From contig JAEZLF010000152.1 of the NCBI GenBank assembly GCA_023435925.1, forward strand, positions 5,589 to 69,588: DNA of 64,000 nt, written 5' to 3'. Shown one piece after another: positions 43,198-64,000 of this stretch. Both the position numbers and the translations under genes were made by a program. This DNA is from Bacillota bacterium (GTDB taxonomy: Bacteria; Bacillota; Clostridia; Acetivibrionales; DTU013). Below the pieces are notes generated by a model, which saw only the letters and a program-made list of their open reading frames with translations, had not been told where the DNA came from and searched no databases. The first letter of the stretch is position 1. The number at the start of each line of letters is the position of its first letter.

Positions 43198-43306
43198 AAG
43201 GAATATGGGGAGGCGCCGGATCGTGTGAAAAGTTCAGGACGCCTCCTCTGCATACAAAATCTCAATTGTTGCTTCACGCAATTGTTGCTTCTACAACAAA
43301 ATTTCA

Positions 43307-43335
43307 TTGACAATGTTTGTAAACCAACATATAAT
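43307..43335 (+). promoter_or_regulatory. consensus sigma-A promoter
   Basis: TTGACA, 17 nt, TATAAT (perfect consensus). Confidence 0.6.
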
Positions 43336-43375
43336 TGAAATGCAATTATGACTATTTTTGAAAGGAGTTGTTTTA

Positions 43376-43411
43376 ATGTCTGTAAAAATAGTAAAGGTGG
43401 TTTTTTACTAA
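43376..43411 (+). other. 11-codon mini-ORF (MSVKIVKVVFY) behind a strong RBS, leader-peptide candidate
   Basis: GAAAGGAG, 8 nt, then ATG. A paralogous arrangement occurs at 59447. Confidence 0.3.
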
Positions 43412-43611
43412 CTGAATATTGGCACGGGAATACAAATGTCCATGAAGCTAACGGCGTTATTTGTATGACCGGTGCAACTCTTTTCGAGCAACCGAGTGGC
43501 AGGGATGAAGCATTGGCTGCATTAACGGACGTATGAACAAGCAGAATTTAAGCATACGGCTGGTTACTGAGTTATTGTTCAGCCTTGAAATGTGTATAAA
43601 ACGTATGGTAG

Positions 43612-43637
43612 ACACGCATTGGTAGCGTGTTTTTTTA
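43612..43637 (+). terminator. rho-independent terminator (hairpin 1)
   Basis: acacgc / gcgtgt stem followed by TTTTTTT. Confidence 0.5.
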
Positions 43638-43669
43638 TTGTATTTTTACTGCTTTTATACTTCTTTCAG

Positions 43670-43702
43670 AAACCCGCAGGTGGTCGTTACCTGCGGGTTT
43701 TT
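43670..43702 (+). terminator. rho-independent terminator (hairpin 2)
   Basis: aaacccgcaggt / acctgcgggttt 12-bp stem followed by a T-run. Confidence 0.65.
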
Positions 43703-43749: not shown

Positions 43750-43905
43750 ATGATGAAAAAGAAGAAGAGTGCATTTGATTATATGAAGGAAATACGAAAT
43801 AGTTGGGTGATAAACCCTCGTACCAGAGTACAGGAAAATGAACTGAAGAACAAAAAGAAACGAAGACAGGAAGAAAGAAATTTGACGAAGGATGGGTATG
43901 AATAA
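43750..43905 (+). CDS. small basic protein (51 aa), unannotated in the ORF track
   Basis: AAGGAG RBS 6 nt upstream of the ATG. Sequence MMKKKKSAFDYMKEIRNSWVINPRTRVQENELKNKKKRRQEERNLTKDGYE. The stop overlaps the rsgA ATG (TAATG). Confidence 0.45.
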   Translation: MMKKKKSAFDYMKEIRNSWVINPRTRVQENELKNKKKRRQEERNLTKDGYE

Positions 43906-44975
43906 TGAATATAAAGGATTATGGTTGGAACGAATTTTTTGAACAGGAGTGGAGGGGGCTGGTCGCAGACAAAGTCTGCTGCTCGCCCATGCATCCGGCC
44001 AGAGTTGTGGCGGATTATGGGCAGCGGATCCGAATGGCATCAGACTTAGGAGAACTGGTTCTGAACAGACCGTTGCATAAGTCCGGCAATGGTATGCAGT
44101 TGGCTGTCGGAGATTGGGTTGCTGTTGAGAATGCCGGCGATGCTAATAATGCAGCGATCCGCTTTATATTGGCAAGAAAAACGAAGTTTTCCAGGGCTGC
44201 AGCCGGAGTTGAAGTGAAGGAGCAGATTGTAGGAGCTAATGTAGATATCGTTTTTCTTCTCCAATCTCTTAATAAGGATTTCAATATGAGAAGGCTGGAA
44301 AGATATCTGATTGCGGCATGGGAGAGCGGGGCGATGCCTGTAGTTATACTGACCAAAGCGGATTGCTGTGAGGATATTGCAGAGAAGCTGGCTATCGTCT
44401 ATAACACTGCACCGGGGACGGAAGTTCATGTCATCAGTTGTGTAACCGGTGAAGGAATTGCTGAAATAAGGAAATATTTCGAACAGGGAAAGACAGTGGC
44501 GCTTCTGGGGTCATCCGGTGTTGGCAAATCCACATTGGTCAACACGCTGGTGGGAAAAGAGCTTTTTAAAACCCAGGAAATCCGCGAGGATGACAGCAAG
44601 GGAAGGCACACCACAACTCATAGAGAGCTTCTGCTTTTGCCTGAGGGAGGACTGATTCTTGACACACCCGGAATGCGGACATTGTCGCTGTGGGAAGCAG
44701 ATACAGGGATGGAGATGATGTTTGGCGATGTGGAGGAGCTGATCAAGCAGTGTCGTTTTTATGATTGCAAACATAACAGTGAGCCGGGGTGTGCAGTCAG
44801 AGCAGCACTCCATAGCGGAACACTGGAAATGAAAAGGTGGGAAAGCTGGTTGAAGCTGCAAAAAGAGCTGGTACATCTGGAAGCCAAGAAGGACGGAAAG
44901 CTGCGGCTTCAGGAGAAGAACTGGGGCAAGCAGATTGCAAGGTTTCAAAAGGAACTATATAAGGGGAGGGTATAA
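43905..44975 (+). CDS. rsgA: ribosome small-subunit-dependent GTPase A
   Basis: Circularly permuted GTPase motifs (LTKADC, GSSGVGKSTLVN, DTPGMR) and a C-terminal zinc motif CRFYDCKHNSEPGCAV. Confidence 0.9.
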   Translation: MNIKDYGWNEFFEQEWRGLVADKVCCSPMHPARVVADYGQRIRMASDLGELVLNRPLHKSGNGMQLAVGDWVAVENAGDANNAAIRFILARKTKFSRAAAGVEVKEQIVGANVDIVFLLQSLNKDFNMRRLERYLIAAWESGAMPVVILTKADCCEDIAEKLAIVYNTAPGTEVHVISCVTGEGIAEIRKYFEQGKTVALLGSSGVGKSTLVNTLVGKELFKTQEIREDDSKGRHTTTHRELLLLPEGGLILDTPGMRTLSLWEADTGMEMMFGDVEELIKQCRFYDCKHNSEPGCAVRAALHSGTLEMKRWESWLKLQKELVHLEAKKDGKLRLQEKNWGKQIARFQKELYKGRV

Positions 44976-44976
44976 A

Positions 44977-45966
44977 ATGGATATCAAAATACGAAGTGAG
45001 AGAATTTCGGATTATAACAGTATAGCAAGTATTAATTACGAGGCTTTTCTTGGATGGCATCCCGATAATCCGTATGTTTCAGAACCCATATTGGTGGATC
45101 TGCTCAGACACAATTCAATGTTTGACCCTGAATTATCATTAGTTGCAGAATTTGATGATAAAGTTATCGGACATGTGCTTTTTTCTCCATTCAGGTTTAT
45201 TGTTTTAGGCAGGGAGCAGGTGGGGGTAGTATTGGCTCCCGTGGCTGTGAAACCGGAATTCCAGAATAAAGGTGTAGGAAGTATGCTGATAGAAGAAGGT
45301 CACAAAAGAGCCAGGGAAAAAGGATTCGCTTTTTCCCTGCTTTGTGGACATGTGGAATATTATCCGAGATTCGGTTATAAGACCGGCATGTTTTCACTAT
45401 CCGGAGTTAATGTAAGCATCTGTTTGGAAAGTTTTAATGATGAAGGCTTTCATGAAAGGCCGGTCAATGGGAGGGATACGGAATGGATTTTTGAAGAATG
45501 GAAAAGCCAACATGCATCGGATGCTCTTGCAATATCATCCGGCAAGAATATTAGTGAATGGAGTAATCACAATATGCAATGCCGTTGTTCAGTTATTAGC
45601 AAGAATAACAGAATCTTGGGATATGTCAGATATGCCCGTTCAAAAAGACTGAACATCAAGGAATTGGTGTGTAAGAGTGAGGATATTACGGATATACTGT
45701 CATATCTTGCCTGGAAAAGCTATGGTAGGGCTCAGGGGGAAATGAGCATTGCATTACCTTTTGAAACATTACAAGCATCACTTGGTAATGCCGGTGATTA
45801 CAAAGTAACTGATGAGCGAGTTGCATATAAAGCTTTTATGATAAGGACTCTAGAGTATACGAGCCCTATTGATGAGTATTGTGAAAAAGTTGAAAAAGAG
45901 GTGATAAAGCCCGGCATCATTGCTTTCCCTGCAATGTTTGATGTAGATGACGGGAGGGATGAATAA
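44977..45966 (+). CDS. GNAT family N-acetyltransferase (YhbS-like N-domain plus unknown C-domain)
   Basis: VAVKPEFQNKGVGSMLIEEG acetyl-CoA motif and GHVEYYPRFGY. ATG lies behind GGGGAGGG. Confidence 0.75.
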   Translation: MDIKIRSERISDYNSIASINYEAFLGWHPDNPYVSEPILVDLLRHNSMFDPELSLVAEFDDKVIGHVLFSPFRFIVLGREQVGVVLAPVAVKPEFQNKGVGSMLIEEGHKRAREKGFAFSLLCGHVEYYPRFGYKTGMFSLSGVNVSICLESFNDEGFHERPVNGRDTEWIFEEWKSQHASDALAISSGKNISEWSNHNMQCRCSVISKNNRILGYVRYARSKRLNIKELVCKSEDITDILSYLAWKSYGRAQGEMSIALPFETLQASLGNAGDYKVTDERVAYKAFMIRTLEYTSPIDEYCEKVEKEVIKPGIIAFPAMFDVDDGRDE

Positions 45967-46954: not shown

Positions 46955-47285
46955 AAATATATAAAGCAAGGGCATTGATGAGAAGAAGTAAGAATTGATT
47001 GGTTTCTACAGAGAGTTCCCGGTTGGTGAGAGGGGCAGAAAACATCATTCTGAATACATCTCTGAGCTTCACACCGAAAAGAAGGGATGGAAAACGTGTC
47101 TCTCGCTTTAGTAGGCTGTTGACGGAATCCTGCACCCGTTATAGTGCTAGAGGATAACATGCTGTTGCAAGCATTCGTCCTTGATAAGGTCTGCACTGCA
47201 AAGTGCCGGTAAATTGAGGTGGTACCACGGGAACAAGACTCTCGTCCTCTGAGTAATTCAGAAGACGAGGGTTTTTTTATTCTGC
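46955..47285 (+). promoter_or_regulatory. T-box leader (Tyr specifier) with terminator
   Basis: Promoter TTGACA-18-TATACT (46919-46948). AGAGA and GGTGAGA stem I elements. GAA-UAC-A specifier (47055-47057). T-box AAATTGAGGTGGTACCACGG (47211-47230). Terminator 47239-47279. Confidence 0.85.
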
Positions 47286-53384: not shown

Positions 53385-53715
53385 TAAAAAAGCCCTCACC
53401 TCCAGGATACTATCCTGGGGACGAGAGCATGATACTTCGTGTTACCACCCCGGTTTATTGATACTTCGCAGCATCAACCTCAGTAAGAACTAATGTAAGC
53501 AGATACATCCTTCCAGGCTTACACGCCATTCTCCGGCACGGTAACGGGTGCATACGTTGCAGCCTATAAGCGGAGGGACATATCGTTTGTTCTGCCTCGC
53601 TTATTCGGTGCAATAGCTCCAAGACCATCTTCAGTCAGCTATTCTTTACTCCCTCTCAGCAAACGGAGTTCTCTGTAAAAGACATCCATGACTTACTCTT
53701 CTTTTCATCGCGTTT
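53385..53715 (-). promoter_or_regulatory. T-box leader upstream of metG (minus strand)
   Basis: Minus-strand reading: promoter TTGACT-17-TAATAT (53749-53721). cAGAGAac and gcTGAGAggg stem I elements. AUG in the specifier region (53628-53626). T-box AACCGGGGTGGTAACACG. Terminator ccccaggat/atcctggagg followed by a T-run (53425-53386). Confidence 0.75.
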
Positions 53716-53855
53716 CCAGTTTTTCTCTATATATTAATACGCTTAAAGGTTCAAGTCAATAGGTTGTGAAGGAATTACTTCAAAACCTTTGCCGAATTTT
53801 ACCTCAGATGCTTATGGAGCGGTTCCGGGGTTGGAGAATATAAGCAAACGATGTG

Positions 53856-59097: not shown

Positions 59098-59272
59098 TTG
59101 AGAAGGGAACCTGGCAGGTTTATAATGTAATTGTACATGATGTTGTGTACATTGCGGTATCCGGAGCCGACTTTTGTACAGAAGGGAGTGGTCTGAGTTG
59201 AAGATTGCAATGGAGGTGGCCATTAATTAATGGCCGGAGGCGTGTCAGGCTGAAAGGTCTGACCGCCTTTTT
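59098..59272 (+). ncRNA. orphan promoter-to-terminator unit (about 140 nt), sRNA or cis-regulatory RNA candidate
   Basis: TTGAGA-17-TATAAT (59098-59126). TGTACA occurs three times. An 18-bp perfect palindrome GGCCATTAATTAATGGCC is flanked by GGAGG. Terminator ggcgtgtcag/ctgaccgcc followed by TTTTT (59239-59272). No ORF with an RBS. Confidence 0.3.
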
Positions 59273-59359
59273 GTATATACGCCCGATATGGATCCCGTTC
59301 TGAAACGATAGAGCAGCTTGAAGAAGTCTTAAGCAAAAATGTTTATAACTGTTCTTTCT

Positions 59360-59389
59360 CTTGACTGACAGTAAAATATTGTAATACAA
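59360..59389 (+). promoter_or_regulatory. sigma-A-type promoter candidate
   Basis: TTGACT, 18 nt, TACAAT. Confidence 0.45.
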
Positions 59390-59446
59390 TGGTTATAGGT
59401 ACATGCAAATTATTTTTGAAATCAACACGAAAGGAGTGTTTTAATA

Positions 59447-59482
59447 ATGATTATAGTATGCGTTGAGGTGGCCATCCTTTAA
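59447..59482 (+). other. 11-codon mini-ORF (MIIVCVEVAIL) behind a strong RBS, leader-peptide candidate
   Basis: GAAAGGAG, 9 nt, then ATG. The 5' module is homologous to the one at 43340-43411. Confidence 0.3.
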
Positions 59483-59641
59483 TTGAATAAATGCAAAGCG
59501 TACAGCAGCAGCCATACTCCGGAATTTTGGCCGGTTTGCTTATTATGCCTTTGCATCATCGTTATGTAATAACCCTTAGCCTGATCATGCAGGTGAATGA
59601 AAGAAGTGCGGTAGAGGTTATCGTGCTTTTGTTTTATGTAA

Positions 59642-59703
59642 GGGGACATTTAAAACAGTGTCCTTTTGTAAAACCACAGGTGGTTATTCTCTGTGGTTTT
59701 TTT
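59642..59703 (+). terminator. two consecutive terminator-like hairpins
   Basis: First hairpin: ggggaca/tgtcc(tt) followed by TTTT. Second hairpin: aaaaccacag/ctgtggtttt followed by a T-run. Confidence 0.55.
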
Positions 59704-59725
59704 ATGCCCGGAGAGGTAGATGTGT

Positions 59726-59819
59726 CCGGATAGGGCGATATGCCAGCCGGATAGGGTGATATGCCAGCCGGATAGGGCGATATGCCAGAGAGGCAGGTGC
59801 GCCCGGATAGGGAGATGGG
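59726..59819. repeat. 21-bp tandem repeat, 3 full copies plus 1 partial (CCGGATAGGG[C/T]GATATGCCAG)
   Basis: Full copies at 59726-59746, 59747-59767 and 59768-59788. A partial copy ccggatagggagatggga lies at 59802-59819. Confidence 0.9.
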
Positions 59820-59832
59820 AGTGTGAATCCAA

Positions 59833-60147
59833 TTGAAATACCGAAATGCAAAAGCAATTCTTCCGGAACATCTCTGGAGAGAACTGCAGCAATATGTTCA
59901 GGGAGAAATTATTTATGTTCCGGAGAATAAGCCGATAAGAGCCGGATGGGGCGAGACAAACGGCACAAGGGAAAAATACAGCAGCAGAAATAACGAAATC
60001 ATAATGCTTTACAGAAATGGAGTCAGCAGGGAGGAGATTGCAGAAAAATATCATCTTTCGGAATACAGTATCAAGAAGATCATATACTGCAGTAAGCAAT
60101 TTTATGAAAGAGTAAGTGCGGGTGCCGGAAATCAATTGGTCAAATGA
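59833..60147 (+). CDS. small HTH protein (CD3324/Mor-like family, from memory)
   Basis: 104 aa with a TTG start. ILPEHLWRELQQYVQGEIIYVP...WGE..G.R N-terminus and a C-terminal HTH-like GVSREEIAEKYHLSEYSIKKIIY. Confidence 0.55.
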   Translation: MKYRNAKAILPEHLWRELQQYVQGEIIYVPENKPIRAGWGETNGTREKYSSRNNEIIMLYRNGVSREEIAEKYHLSEYSIKKIIYCSKQFYERVSAGAGNQLVK

Positions 60148-60164
60148 TATGAAACATACATGAA

Positions 60165-60193
60165 AAATAAGCCTGGTCAGGCTTATTTTTTTT
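60165..60193 (+). terminator. rho-independent terminator
   Basis: aaataagcctg / caggcttattt stem followed by a long T-run. Confidence 0.65.
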
Positions 60194-60403
60194 ATGTAAA
60201 GGAAGTTTAACAGAAACGTAACGGAAGCCTAAAATAAGGCTGAAAGCAGTTGAAAGCGGCGGTAAGAGACGGAAAGAAGAGTGGAAAGCGGTTGAAAGCG
60301 GCAGCTTAGGATGAATCATGAAAAAAGCTTTGCAAATTGGAATAGTTGCGATAAAATAGTACTTCCATGGGAGTAAAAGGAAGTCTGTATTTGGAGGGTC
60401 ACT

Positions 60404-63049: not shown

Positions 63050-64000
63050 TTATTTTATAGGCTGCAGGCTAATCCTGCGGCTTTTAACAAAACCCATTAC
63101 ACTGTCAATAGCATAACCGATGATGGAAAGCACGATGAATGCGGTTGCCAAAGTGTGATAACCTGACATTGCACTGGAAACAGGAACGTTGACGGCTTCG
63201 GCAAAAAGAGATACAAATCCGGCATCAATCAGCAATTTATCAGTGAACATGAAGTAAATCAATATGCTTACAGCGATGTTGTTTATGGTGTTGAAAATAG
63301 CCAGCGGAAGATCCCATCGCATGACGATGAATTTATAGATTGAAAGGATAAACTGCACAATGGCCAATATTACAATTGCAAAAATGTATGACTGCAGCTG
63401 TTCGATATTAAAGAACGGCGCCAGAAGAGTTAACTCATTACCATTCATGCCATACCATCCAATAATATGAGGCCGGACTACAAATAGTACGGTGAAGAAC
63501 ACGTTAAAGAACAAACCTACTATCGTTTCCACTCGTGATATTTTATTCTTGGAGGGTGTTGGCCATGGAGGCAAATCATCAACGGACCATTTTGCTTTTT
63601 TAAAGGGCAGATTTCCTTCATGAACACCGACTCTATCTAACATGACAAAAATGATTGTGACCCAAAGGAATCCATTAGTAATACCGCTAAAGGCCGAAGA
63701 GAGTATACTTGCAAAAAAATCTGCTGCGAATTGAAAAGAGACCTCCGCCGGCTTTGATACCAAACCGATCAGATCAATAAAAACAAATACAATAGCTGCA
63801 ATTCCTGTTACCAGCTTGAGAATGGAAATGTAGCTGTCATATAAAGCAGGTCCGATGAGGTATTTATTTGTCTGACGGTATTCGTTTGCAAGCTTCATAG
63901 GGTTGCCCAATTGTTCCAGCGCATCGCGAATATCCTCCTGTGTTGGCTGCTCCGGCAGCATGTCTTCTATATTGGCCTTCAGCTCTCTCTTTACATCATC
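63050..64000 (-). CDS. polytopic membrane protein with N-terminal cytoplasmic helical domain (HAAS/DUF1700-like?), 5' end outside window
   Basis: The reading frame stays open upstream of the first Met to the window edge (..DDVKRELKANIEDMLPEQPTQEDIRDALEQLGNP). At least six TM segments follow. Confidence 0.5.
   Translation of the reverse strand, partial: DDVKRELKANIEDMLPEQPTQEDIRDALEQLGNPMKLANEYRQTNKYLIGPALYDSYISILKLVTGIAAIVFVFIDLIGLVSKPAEVSFQFAADFFASILSSAFSGITNGFLWVTIIFVMLDRVGVHEGNLPFKKAKWSVDDLPPWPTPSKNKISRVETIVGLFFNVFFTVLFVVRPHIIGWYGMNGNELTLLAPFFNIEQLQSYIFAIVILAIVQFILSIYKFIVMRWDLPLAIFNTINNIAVSILIYFMFTDKLLIDAGFVSLFAEAVNVPVSSAMSGYHTLATAFIVLSIIGYAIDSVMGFVKSRRISLQPIK

Follow-up and report, generated by a model that had tools for sequence, protein, structure and literature searches.

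A conserved leader upstream of CD3324-family regulator genes in Bacillota, with a short reading frame, tandem terminators, and a candidate role in ribosome-dependent attenuation

Sequences that resemble a Shine-Dalgarno (SD) site can act on elongating or terminating ribosomes, as at the prfB frameshift site and in termination-reinitiation coupling, and the ermK attenuator has two terminators. Antibiotic-inducible attenuators with leader peptides have been described in Bacillota for hflXr/rli80 of Listeria (PMC6310831) and for vmlR (PMC9226507). In Actinobacteria, wblC/whiB7 is induced via attenuation that is mediated by an upstream open reading frame (uORF), and the WblC/WhiB7 regulon includes Eis acetyltransferases (GNATs), ABC transporters, HflX, and a paralog of RsgA/EngC (PMC7157823). 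Here we analyze element B, a leader that lies upstream of a small helix-turn-helix (HTH) gene of the CD3324 family in a 64,000-nucleotide stretch of DNA from a Bacillota bacterium (Clostridia; Acetivibrionales; DTU013; GenBank assembly GCA_023435925.1, contig JAEZLF010000152.1, positions 5,589 to 69,588). We refer to the whole stretch as the window and give all coordinates as positions within it.

An earlier note, made from the sequence of the window, had proposed that element B and a second leader, element A, belong to a cis-regulatory family. Our evidence on the function of these leaders is comparative and computational throughout. Element B is very probably a cis-acting attenuator. It is also likely, if less firmly so, that element B forms the proximal portion of a long leader that attenuates transcription of the CD3324-family HTH gene in a ribosome-dependent way. 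The leader family is widespread in spore-forming Bacillota and has apparently not been described so far.

Element B and its relatives

Element B has the layout of an attenuator: an SD sequence and a short reading frame follow a promoter, terminators stand before a gene, and the gene has no separate promoter. The sigma-70-type promoter, TTGACT-18-TACAAT, is where the earlier note had placed it (59361-59390; all parts of element B are on the + strand), and its TTGAC and TAcAAT are kept across loci. The SD sequence GAAAGGAG (59429-59436) is invariant in three leader alignments. It belongs to a mini-ORF (59447-59482) that encodes MIIVCVEVAIL with 11 sense codons and a TAA stop, just as had been read from the sequence, and that is intact in relatives. 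Within the mini-ORF, 9 nt 5' of the stop codon, is an SD-like box, GAGGTG (59465-59470), which we call the X-box. The stop codon itself is part of a block, TAATTGAATA (59480-59489; family consensus TAACTGAATA), which is the candidate 3' strand of a helix, P0, and would pair with TCAA at 59422-59425. Helix P1 (GCAAAGCGTA ... TATGCCTTTGC, 59493-59554) shows covariation and encloses a variable hairpin. It is followed by a region of AACC boxes (AATAACCC TTAG CCTGA, 59568-59584), a candidate antiterminator strand that is complementary to the GGTTAT of the two terminators. The first of these, T1, has a conserved loop (GGTAGAGGTTATC) and a T run (59602-59637; hairpin 59602-59630). The second, T2, is an inverted repeat (AAAACCACAG GTGGTTATTCT CTGTGGTTTT) that ends in TTTTTTT (59670-59703; hairpin 59670-59700). 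Between them, at about 59641-59667, is a variable hairpin that is missing from many relatives. The earlier note had counted two hairpins, about 160 nt after the mini-ORF; there are actually three, and T1 begins about 120 nt after the stop codon.

The cargo gene (59833-60147, + strand) encodes a small HTH protein of the CD3324 family (NF040785, 104.6 bits versus a cut-off of 65). There is no promoter-like site between T2 and this gene in the window (59703-59833). A structural model of the protein (pLDDT 79) has a C-terminal HTH of the LuxR/GerE/Mu C type, with weak matches only, and a fold search with the HTH model gave no significant match, just weak similarity to LuxR/GerE/Mu C-like proteins.

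Element A (43307-43702, + strand) is a sister leader with the same order of parts. The two leaders had been described as homologous apart from an 11-nt insertion, and indeed, their global alignment has an 11-nt gap and scores 159, versus 102 ± 9 for shuffled sequences. Both mini-ORFs have 11 codons plus TAA and share RAG-GTG-G. Also, the last hairpin of element B shares AAACCnCAGGTGGT with that of element A (43670-43702), while the arms differ in a compensating way (ACCACAG/CTGTGGT in B versus ACCCGCAGG/CCTGCGGGT in A). The family resemblance goes beyond generic ribosome binding sites and terminators: it includes a RAGGTG-N9-TAACTGAATA block, helix P1 with five compensatory pairs, and conserved terminator loops.

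We took 80 species-level loci with genes for CD3324-family proteins and scanned them with an nhmmer profile of element B. In 44 of the 80 genomes, the profile matched on the same strand and directly 5' of the CD3324-family gene, with E values down to 1e-76. At these 44 loci, the 3' end of the leader is 22-186 nt from the gene, and in most loci, the distance from T2 to the start of the cargo gene is 22-70 nt. Because T1 and T2 lie only tens of nucleotides before the cargo's start codon, the cargo would be made only by read-through. Overall, nhmmer found over 50 copies of the leader, and every one of them stands immediately 5' of a gene with the same orientation, which bears out the proposal of a cis-regulatory family rather than a chance similarity. 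The hosts include Ruminiclostridium cellobioparum, R. hungatei, many Bacillota metagenome-assembled genomes (MAGs), Thermoclostridium, Caldicoprobacterales, and some Paenibacillus. (Many of the loci are from related MAGs, so the family counts are not counts of independent events.) Within the window, the profile found element B itself and element A in two pieces (E = 5.8e-7 and 7.2e-5), and nothing else. A pattern scan of metagenomes returned 120 loci, of which 9 are true members according to the profile and 111 are chance matches.

The direct cargo of element B is the CD3324-family HTH gene and not the ABC-2 transporter. The earlier note had placed the leader before both. The HTH gene stands as the cargo, but the leader is retained without ABC genes in three loci (L005, L006, and L007; L numbers denote individual loci). 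More broadly, the roughly 750 nt upstream of the HTH gene are 68-87% identical in metagenome relatives, and this region is kept in the same three loci as well. Furthermore, the HTH gene has its own bidirectional terminator (60163-60190), so the ABC-2 genes are probably a separate unit. Homologs of the window's ABC-2 genes (35-42% identity) do adjoin the unit in L011, L015, L018, L029, and L041. In 8 of the genome loci, a gene for an RsgA-like GTPase is directly 3' of the CD3324 gene behind a B-type leader, and in L051, a GNAT gene lies between the two. The recurrent cargo set is thus the CD3324 HTH protein, an RsgA-like GTPase paralog, a GNAT, and a small basic protein, with ABC-2 transporters as frequent neighbors.

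Neither the leader nor its main cargo appears to have been described. A full-text search of the literature found no papers on CD3324 and no paper that describes a leader of this type. When we compared elements A and B and a third module, B0 (see below), to Rfam 15, we found no family at either the gathering thresholds or permissive thresholds (E up to 10). At E up to 10, the T-box model (RF00230) still did not match either element A or element B, and the Trp and His leader models gave sub-threshold, terminator-like matches only. The sole Rfam matches in the window are two T-box leaders, at 46966-47252 (+ strand, 108.8 bits) and 53414-53717 (- strand, 95.9 bits), both above the gathering threshold. 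The ORFs behind them, of 421 and 541 amino acids, probably encode aminoacyl-tRNA synthetases.

A reading frame conserved as RNA

We analyzed the mini-ORF in 51 distinct leaders. A script found an intact mini-ORF that ends in the TAACTGA block in 50 of the 51, and L143, which we read by hand, has one as well. The start codon is 7-13 nt after GAAAGGAG and is usually ATG (42 leaders, versus 5 with GTG and 3 with TTG). The earlier note had emphasized that the length of the ORF is conserved while the peptide differs. This is true of elements A and B but not of the family: the mini-ORFs vary from 10 to 20 codons (the mode is 11-12), their N-terminal parts are not conserved, and what they share is the SD-like box inside the ORF. 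In 47 of 50 leaders, exactly 9 nt separate RAGGTG from the stop codon.

The conserved part of the mini-ORF is an RNA element and not a peptide. At the fifth codon before the stop, the leaders have GAG (47), AAG (3), or AGA (1), and never GAA, while the adjacent CD3324 genes use GAA more often than GAG (245 versus 118). Similarly, at the fourth codon before the stop, 45 of the leaders' 49 valine codons are GTG, as compared to 21 of 171 in the adjacent CD3324 genes. Because codon usage differs in this way, the constraint must be at the nucleotide level. Exceptional members lead to the same view. In L112, the block is read in another frame (MSDKMLRWFLTN), and the stop codon is the TGA of AACTGA. 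L086 has an 8-nt spacer and a peptide that ends in QRGARP, and L074 has GAGGCA and a peptide that ends in REAARL; both retain the nucleotide block. In other words, we did not find the conserved peptide under amino-acid-level selection that an arrest peptide would show: the codons are fixed at the nucleotide level, and the frame-shifted members retain the nucleotides only.

What might the box do? In several loci, it reads GAGGTGATCC, which is the full complement of the 3' end of 16S rRNA in Bacillota (GGAUCACCUC; the window itself has no rRNA). Its GAGG ends 8 nt 5' of the last sense codon, which matches the distance from the SD sequence to the start codon in the same leaders. Given this equal spacing, the anti-SD would be expected to pair with the box once the stop codon has entered the A site. 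A separate observation concerns the length of the ORF: two adjacent ribosomes have their P sites about as far apart as the shortest ORFs (10 codons) and the mode (11-12 codons) are long, which would leave just enough space for a ribosome at the start codon with another at the stop codon.

Two other ideas about coding were dropped. The family alignment has no conserved slippery codon, restart codon, or downstream frame, which disfavors frameshifting or read-through of the stop codon. And a six-frame comparison of elements A and B found no common protein coding between the mini-ORF and the terminators, which argues against a hidden protein gene between the mini-ORF and T1.

RNA pairings, a possible mechanism, and its alternatives

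Across the family, the promoter is followed in many members by a segment with a GGTT-type box, then by (T)TTCAGT, and then by GAAAGGAGTGT, with the start codon 7-13 nt on. A variable run of codons leads to RAG GTG nnn nnn nnn TAA CTGAATAT and to helix P1 (GCAAAGG...CCTTTTGC) around a hypervariable hairpin. After P1 come one to three boxes that contain AACC (AACAACCTG, AATAACCC, or AACCTGA). The 3' end consists of T1 (AGTACGGTA-AAGGT-TATCGTGCT plus a T run), sometimes a variable hairpin, and T2 (CCACAG-GTGGTTATTCT-CTGTGG plus a T run).

We counted pairs for P0, P1, and T1 in an alignment of 25 sequences. P1, whose first pair is 10 nt 3' of the stop codon, has 10 pairs, with 92.7% of cells paired and double changes at 5 of the pairs. 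T1 has 9 pairs and 99% of cells paired, with single-sided changes of the wobble type only and no double changes. P0 (TTCAGT : ACTGAA) has 7 pairs and shows one compensatory change, from G-C to A-U, in the window and L002. Taken together, P0, P1, and T1 have 90% of cells paired, versus 37-48% if the 3' partner is slid along the alignment. One pair of T2 changes from G-C to A-U in five sequences. (RNAalifold on the match columns of the profile was uninformative, given the variable inserts.)

The terminators also share a motif that links them to the boxes after P1. GGTT(A/G)T is conserved in the loop and upper stem of the terminators, and its complement is in the boxes. In compact members, the possible pairings are nested: AACAACC with GGTTGTT of T2, ATAACC with GGTTAT of T1, and ACCG or CC with CGG of the 5' arm of T1. 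These nested pairings have 92.8% of cells paired in the compact members, versus 24-51% if slid. In a wider set, 91% of cells are paired, and over both sets, the slid controls range from 15% to 51%. The nested pairings form in prefix folds of L012, L007, and L010. L019 has AAAACC as its box and GGTTTTT as its T2 loop.

These features suggest a mechanism. Complementarity and spacing imply that the anti-SD would pair with RAGGTG at the very moment that the stop codon occupies the A site. This pairing would park a terminating or post-termination ribosome over the TAACTGAATA block, with its leading edge at the first pair of P1; that the SD-like box holds the terminating ribosome in this way seems to us neither more nor less probable than that it does not. 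The ribosome's occupancy of the mini-ORF (parked, stalled upstream, or absent) would then choose between two outcomes for the RNA. Either the AACC boxes pair with GGTT(A/G)T of the two terminators (in their loops and 5' arms), which would prevent termination, or the terminator hairpins form. That the AACC:GGTT pairing is the antiterminator is a tentative suggestion from the sequence patterns, and we would put it somewhat below an even bet. As for the sign of the response, read-through when translation of the mini-ORF is disturbed seems likeliest, by analogy to whiB7, hflXr, and erm-type leaders. More tentative still is the nature of the signal, for which the leading candidate is impaired translation, caused by ribosome-targeting antibiotics or another stress on translation; we propose it because the cargo set parallels that of WblC/WhiB7. 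The response to drugs that the earlier note had thought plausible is likewise suggested by the cargo genes.

Several results weigh against this mechanism or against the generality of the leader. Of the 80 CD3324 loci, 36 (mostly from Paenibacillus) have no match to the profile. P0 has just 75% of its cells paired. The AACC:GGTT sequences are almost invariant, with no double changes and hence no covariation, and tests of their duplex energies against shuffled sequences were weak or powerless. (Duplex z-scores for the landmarks had no power in general: even T1 against the AACC region gave z = -0.4.) In thermodynamic terms, no alternative pairing that we found comes close to the strength of T1 and T2, and when we used prefix folding and constrained folding with a ribosome footprint at the stop codon, T1 and T2 always dominated and there was no clear switch between terminator and antiterminator. 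We found no consistent anti-antiterminator across the members. The X-box was no better than shuffled sequences as a partner for the AACC region (mean z = -0.5), and we rejected it for this role. We also rejected the GGTT-type box near the 5' end as a general means of sequestering the AACC boxes. Its occurrence is limited to leaders whose 5' part is long (L011, L018, L019, L024, L016, and L030 have a strong one), and it is missing from members with short leaders, probably including the window. Similarly, the TAACTGAATA block has no consistent downstream partner across the members.

Other explanations for the leader also need to be considered. The mini-ORF might encode an arrest peptide of the ErmCL/ErmAL or TnaC kind, in which the C-terminal [E/K]-V-x-x-x-stop would stall the ribosome, perhaps together with a drug or metabolite; conservation of the nucleotides would then be secondary. 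Glutamate or lysine followed by valine is indeed found at positions -5 and -4 of 48 of 50 ORFs, then mostly hydrophobic residues, and the peptides of the B0 module are rather uniform (MKxxMEVA[IV]x). We nevertheless think that this is unlikely: GAA, GTT, GTA, and GTC, the synonymous alternatives, are almost unused in the leaders yet dominant in neighboring genes, positions -3 to -1 are very variable, and L112, L086, and L074 keep the nucleotide block and not the peptide. The leader might instead bind a ligand, a protein, or an RNA, either like a riboswitch or as a target of the CD3324 protein or another factor, with CTGAATAT, AATAACCC, and the GGTTAT loops as the sensor and the mini-ORF as an accessory. 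This would fit with the highly conserved unpaired nucleotides, with GGTT(A/G)T in the loops of both terminators, with the length of the leader (about 250-350 nt), and with the closing of a multi-helix region by P1. It has a low probability as well, because all 51 leaders have an intact ORF with a canonical SD sequence and spacing; because the length and sequence are hypervariable inside P1 and between the boxes; because there is no match to any Rfam family; and because the A-type leaders lack GGTTAT and ATAACC and yet keep the ORF block.

It is quite improbable that B0 or element B (or both) are independent genes for small RNAs, micropeptides, or dual-function RNAs, which end at their own terminators, with the downstream gene expressed on its own. 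B0 does have its own promoter and terminator, 5' of a second promoter, and tandem strong terminators should yield a discrete RNA of about 300 nt. But the peptides are not conserved, and the position and strand of the leader are kept before several unrelated cargo genes. The gap from T2 to the cargo leaves no room for a promoter in most loci, and none was seen in the window. Lastly, element A and element B could have been two generic regions with a ribosome binding site and terminators that resemble each other by chance, and taken one by one, the motifs are not rare in the window. The profile matches in dozens of species at a homologous position, together with the covariation in P1, refute this idea. 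Ribosome-dependent attenuation of the HTH gene is the explanation that we prefer.

Related elements, neighboring genes, and known systems

Element A has a promoter (43307-43335), an SD sequence (43360-43367), a mini-ORF that encodes MSVKIVKVVFY (11 codons plus TAA, 43376-43411), T1 (43612-43636), and T2 (43670-43702), all on the + strand. Its cargo (43750-45966, +) is a 51-amino-acid protein that is rich in lysine and arginine and has no family match, an RsgA-like GTPase (TIGR00157, 164.8 bits), and a 343-amino-acid GNAT whose best resemblance, albeit weak, is to Eis. The trio, or pairs of its members, recur behind leaders of this family elsewhere. Just 5' of the -35 box of element A, CAATTGTTGCTTC occurs twice as a direct repeat (43263-43275 and 43279-43291, +) and overlaps a TTGTTG...CAACAA palindrome; this is a candidate operator.

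A-type leaders, which lack GGTTAT and ATAACC but retain the ORF block, account for 6 of the 9 true members from the metagenomes. Two of them, L143 and L112, share T1 (CACGCATTGGYAGCGTG) and T2 (AAACCCGCAGGTGGTCGATATCTGCGGG) with element A. RsgA-like GTPases recur as cargo: in L143, after a small basic protein and before an ORF of 277 amino acids without a family match; in L112; in L141, followed by an ORF of 228 amino acids (a possible GNAT, without a family match); and in L200, after small ORFs. L185 has a small basic protein and, further 3', a UvrA-like gene, and L184 has a GNAT-like gene that is weakly similar to the GNAT in the window.

A third related module, B0, lies just 5' of the region that the earlier note had described. 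B0 (59098-59272, +) is kept 5' of the B-type leader in 23 loci (E = 1e-66 to 1e-15). It has a promoter, TTGAGA-17-TATAAT (59098-59126), that is conserved in the B0 alignment, and a 5' hairpin, TGTACA...TGTACA (59132-59151), in the consensus fold, whose pairs survive U-G, U-A, and G-C changes. Its mini-ORF (59198-59230) starts with TTG, encodes (M)KIAMEVAIN in 10 codons plus TAA, and contains GGAGGTGG 9 nt 5' of the stop codon; the 10-codon length is conserved. The SD sequence is partly paired with an upstream CTTTY stretch. A hairpin, H1 (GGCCAT/ATGGCC, 59218-59235), has two pairs with 5 and 9 double changes, and the stop codon spans the end of its loop and the first base of its 3' arm. The stem of an intrinsic terminator (59239-59272) begins 9 nt 3' of the stop codon. 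B0 looks like a smaller version of the design of element B. A ribosome on its stop codon would open H1 and would abut or cover the base of the terminator, so translation could reduce termination in a simple way. B0 could be the first stage of attenuation or a separate small RNA. In L006, genes similar to TyrRS and MetRS flank the unit of B0, element B, and the HTH gene.

Several other sequences near element B might be regulatory. The stretch 5' of the -35 box of B-type leaders is strongly kept (TTATAA-N4-5-TTCTTTCTCTTGAC, for example at 59344-59366 in the window) and could be an operator or an UP element, or, in transcripts that read through from B0, an anti-SD-like segment of RNA. As the earlier note reported, 21-bp repeats, the CD3324 HTH gene, and ABC-2 genes are all present downstream. 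There are five copies of the 21-bp repeat CCGGATAGGGYGATATGCCAG between T2 and the HTH gene (59708-59823, +), and a similar 15-mer recurs within the HTH gene (59940-59954). The repeats are specific to the lineage and are outside the core of the family: they are reduced in number in the closest relatives, L002 and L003, and absent from L005-L007 and from other species. They may be an array of operators. Between the terminator of the HTH gene and the start of the ABC ATPase gene (60404), GTTGAAAGCGGC and GTGGAAAGCGG motifs are repeated (60242-60302, +) and may be a regulatory site for the transporter operon. Beyond the ABC-2 genes, on the other strand, are a HAAS-domain protein (PF22564) and a PadR-family regulator (63050-63961, -; in L001, 2648-3979), which are a membrane-anchored pair of sensor and repressor.

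If our interpretation is correct, then the leader represents a regulatory RNA that is widespread among anaerobic and spore-forming Bacillota, without an Rfam model or a paper that can be found by searching. It would give the uncharacterized CD3324 family its first function-related context, and would link it to two kinds of protein that may underlie intrinsic tolerance to ribosome-targeting drugs, RsgA-like GTPase paralogs and Eis-like acetyltransferases. It would also reveal a simple design principle, namely, an SD-like box inside an ORF at an initiation-like spacing to the stop codon. Ruminiclostridium cellobioparum and Paenibacillus are culturable hosts of the leader.

One similar system is wblC/whiB7. 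In both cases, the gene for a small transcription factor is behind a leader with a uORF and a terminator, and an Eis-like GNAT, a paralog of RsgA/EngC, and ABC transporters are associated. The parallel is in gene content only. The regulators are unrelated (a CD3324-family HTH protein here, a WhiB iron-sulfur protein there), the phyla differ, and the leaders have no sequence similarity. Also, unlike for wblC/whiB7, the same type of leader is found directly on effector operons, and it has an SD-like box in the ORF and two terminators. One might still speculate that this is the counterpart of WhiB7/WblC in Clostridia and Paenibacillus, with one leader family that switches both the CD3324 regulator and effector operons via the behavior of ribosomes, although we think this is doubtful. 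In such a scheme, the effectors would be the RsgA paralog, the Eis-like acetyltransferase, and the small basic protein, with ABC-2 exporters nearby; the SD-like box would park the terminating ribosome, and the AACC boxes, which are anti-SD-like, would compete for SD-like sequences in the two terminators.

The leaders of hflXr, vmlR, and ermK are similar in that a short uORF and then one or more intrinsic terminators precede the gene for a ribosome-associated factor. The GTPase paralog behind element A is of the ribosome-biogenesis type and would be controlled much as hflXr is. However, those leaders are not related to ours in sequence, and in ours, no drug-specific arrest motif can be recognized; what is conserved is the SD-like box, which keeps a set distance to the stop codon. 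Our leaders are also much longer, with a covarying P1 and AACC/GGTT boxes. The attenuators of trp, his, and ilv operons likewise have a promoter, an SD sequence, a short ORF, alternative RNA pairings (which are candidates here), and an intrinsic terminator. In contrast to those attenuators, the mini-ORFs are free of runs of regulatory codons, the cargo genes have no biosynthetic role, and over 100 nt separate the end of the ORF from the first terminator.

The X-box resembles the SD-like site of prfB in that an internal complement of the 16S tail is at a defined distance from a stop codon. Its 6-nt distance to the P-site codon is relaxed, as at initiation, unlike the 3 nt in prfB that drive +1 frameshifting, and unlike prfB or reinitiation sites, it is not accompanied by a conserved slippery or restart codon. 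Overall, four features of these leaders are unusual: an SD-like box within the ORF whose distance to the stop codon is fixed; two terminators in tandem that share loop motifs; the two-tier arrangement of B0 and element B; and the use of one type of leader on both a regulator gene and ribosome-related effector genes.

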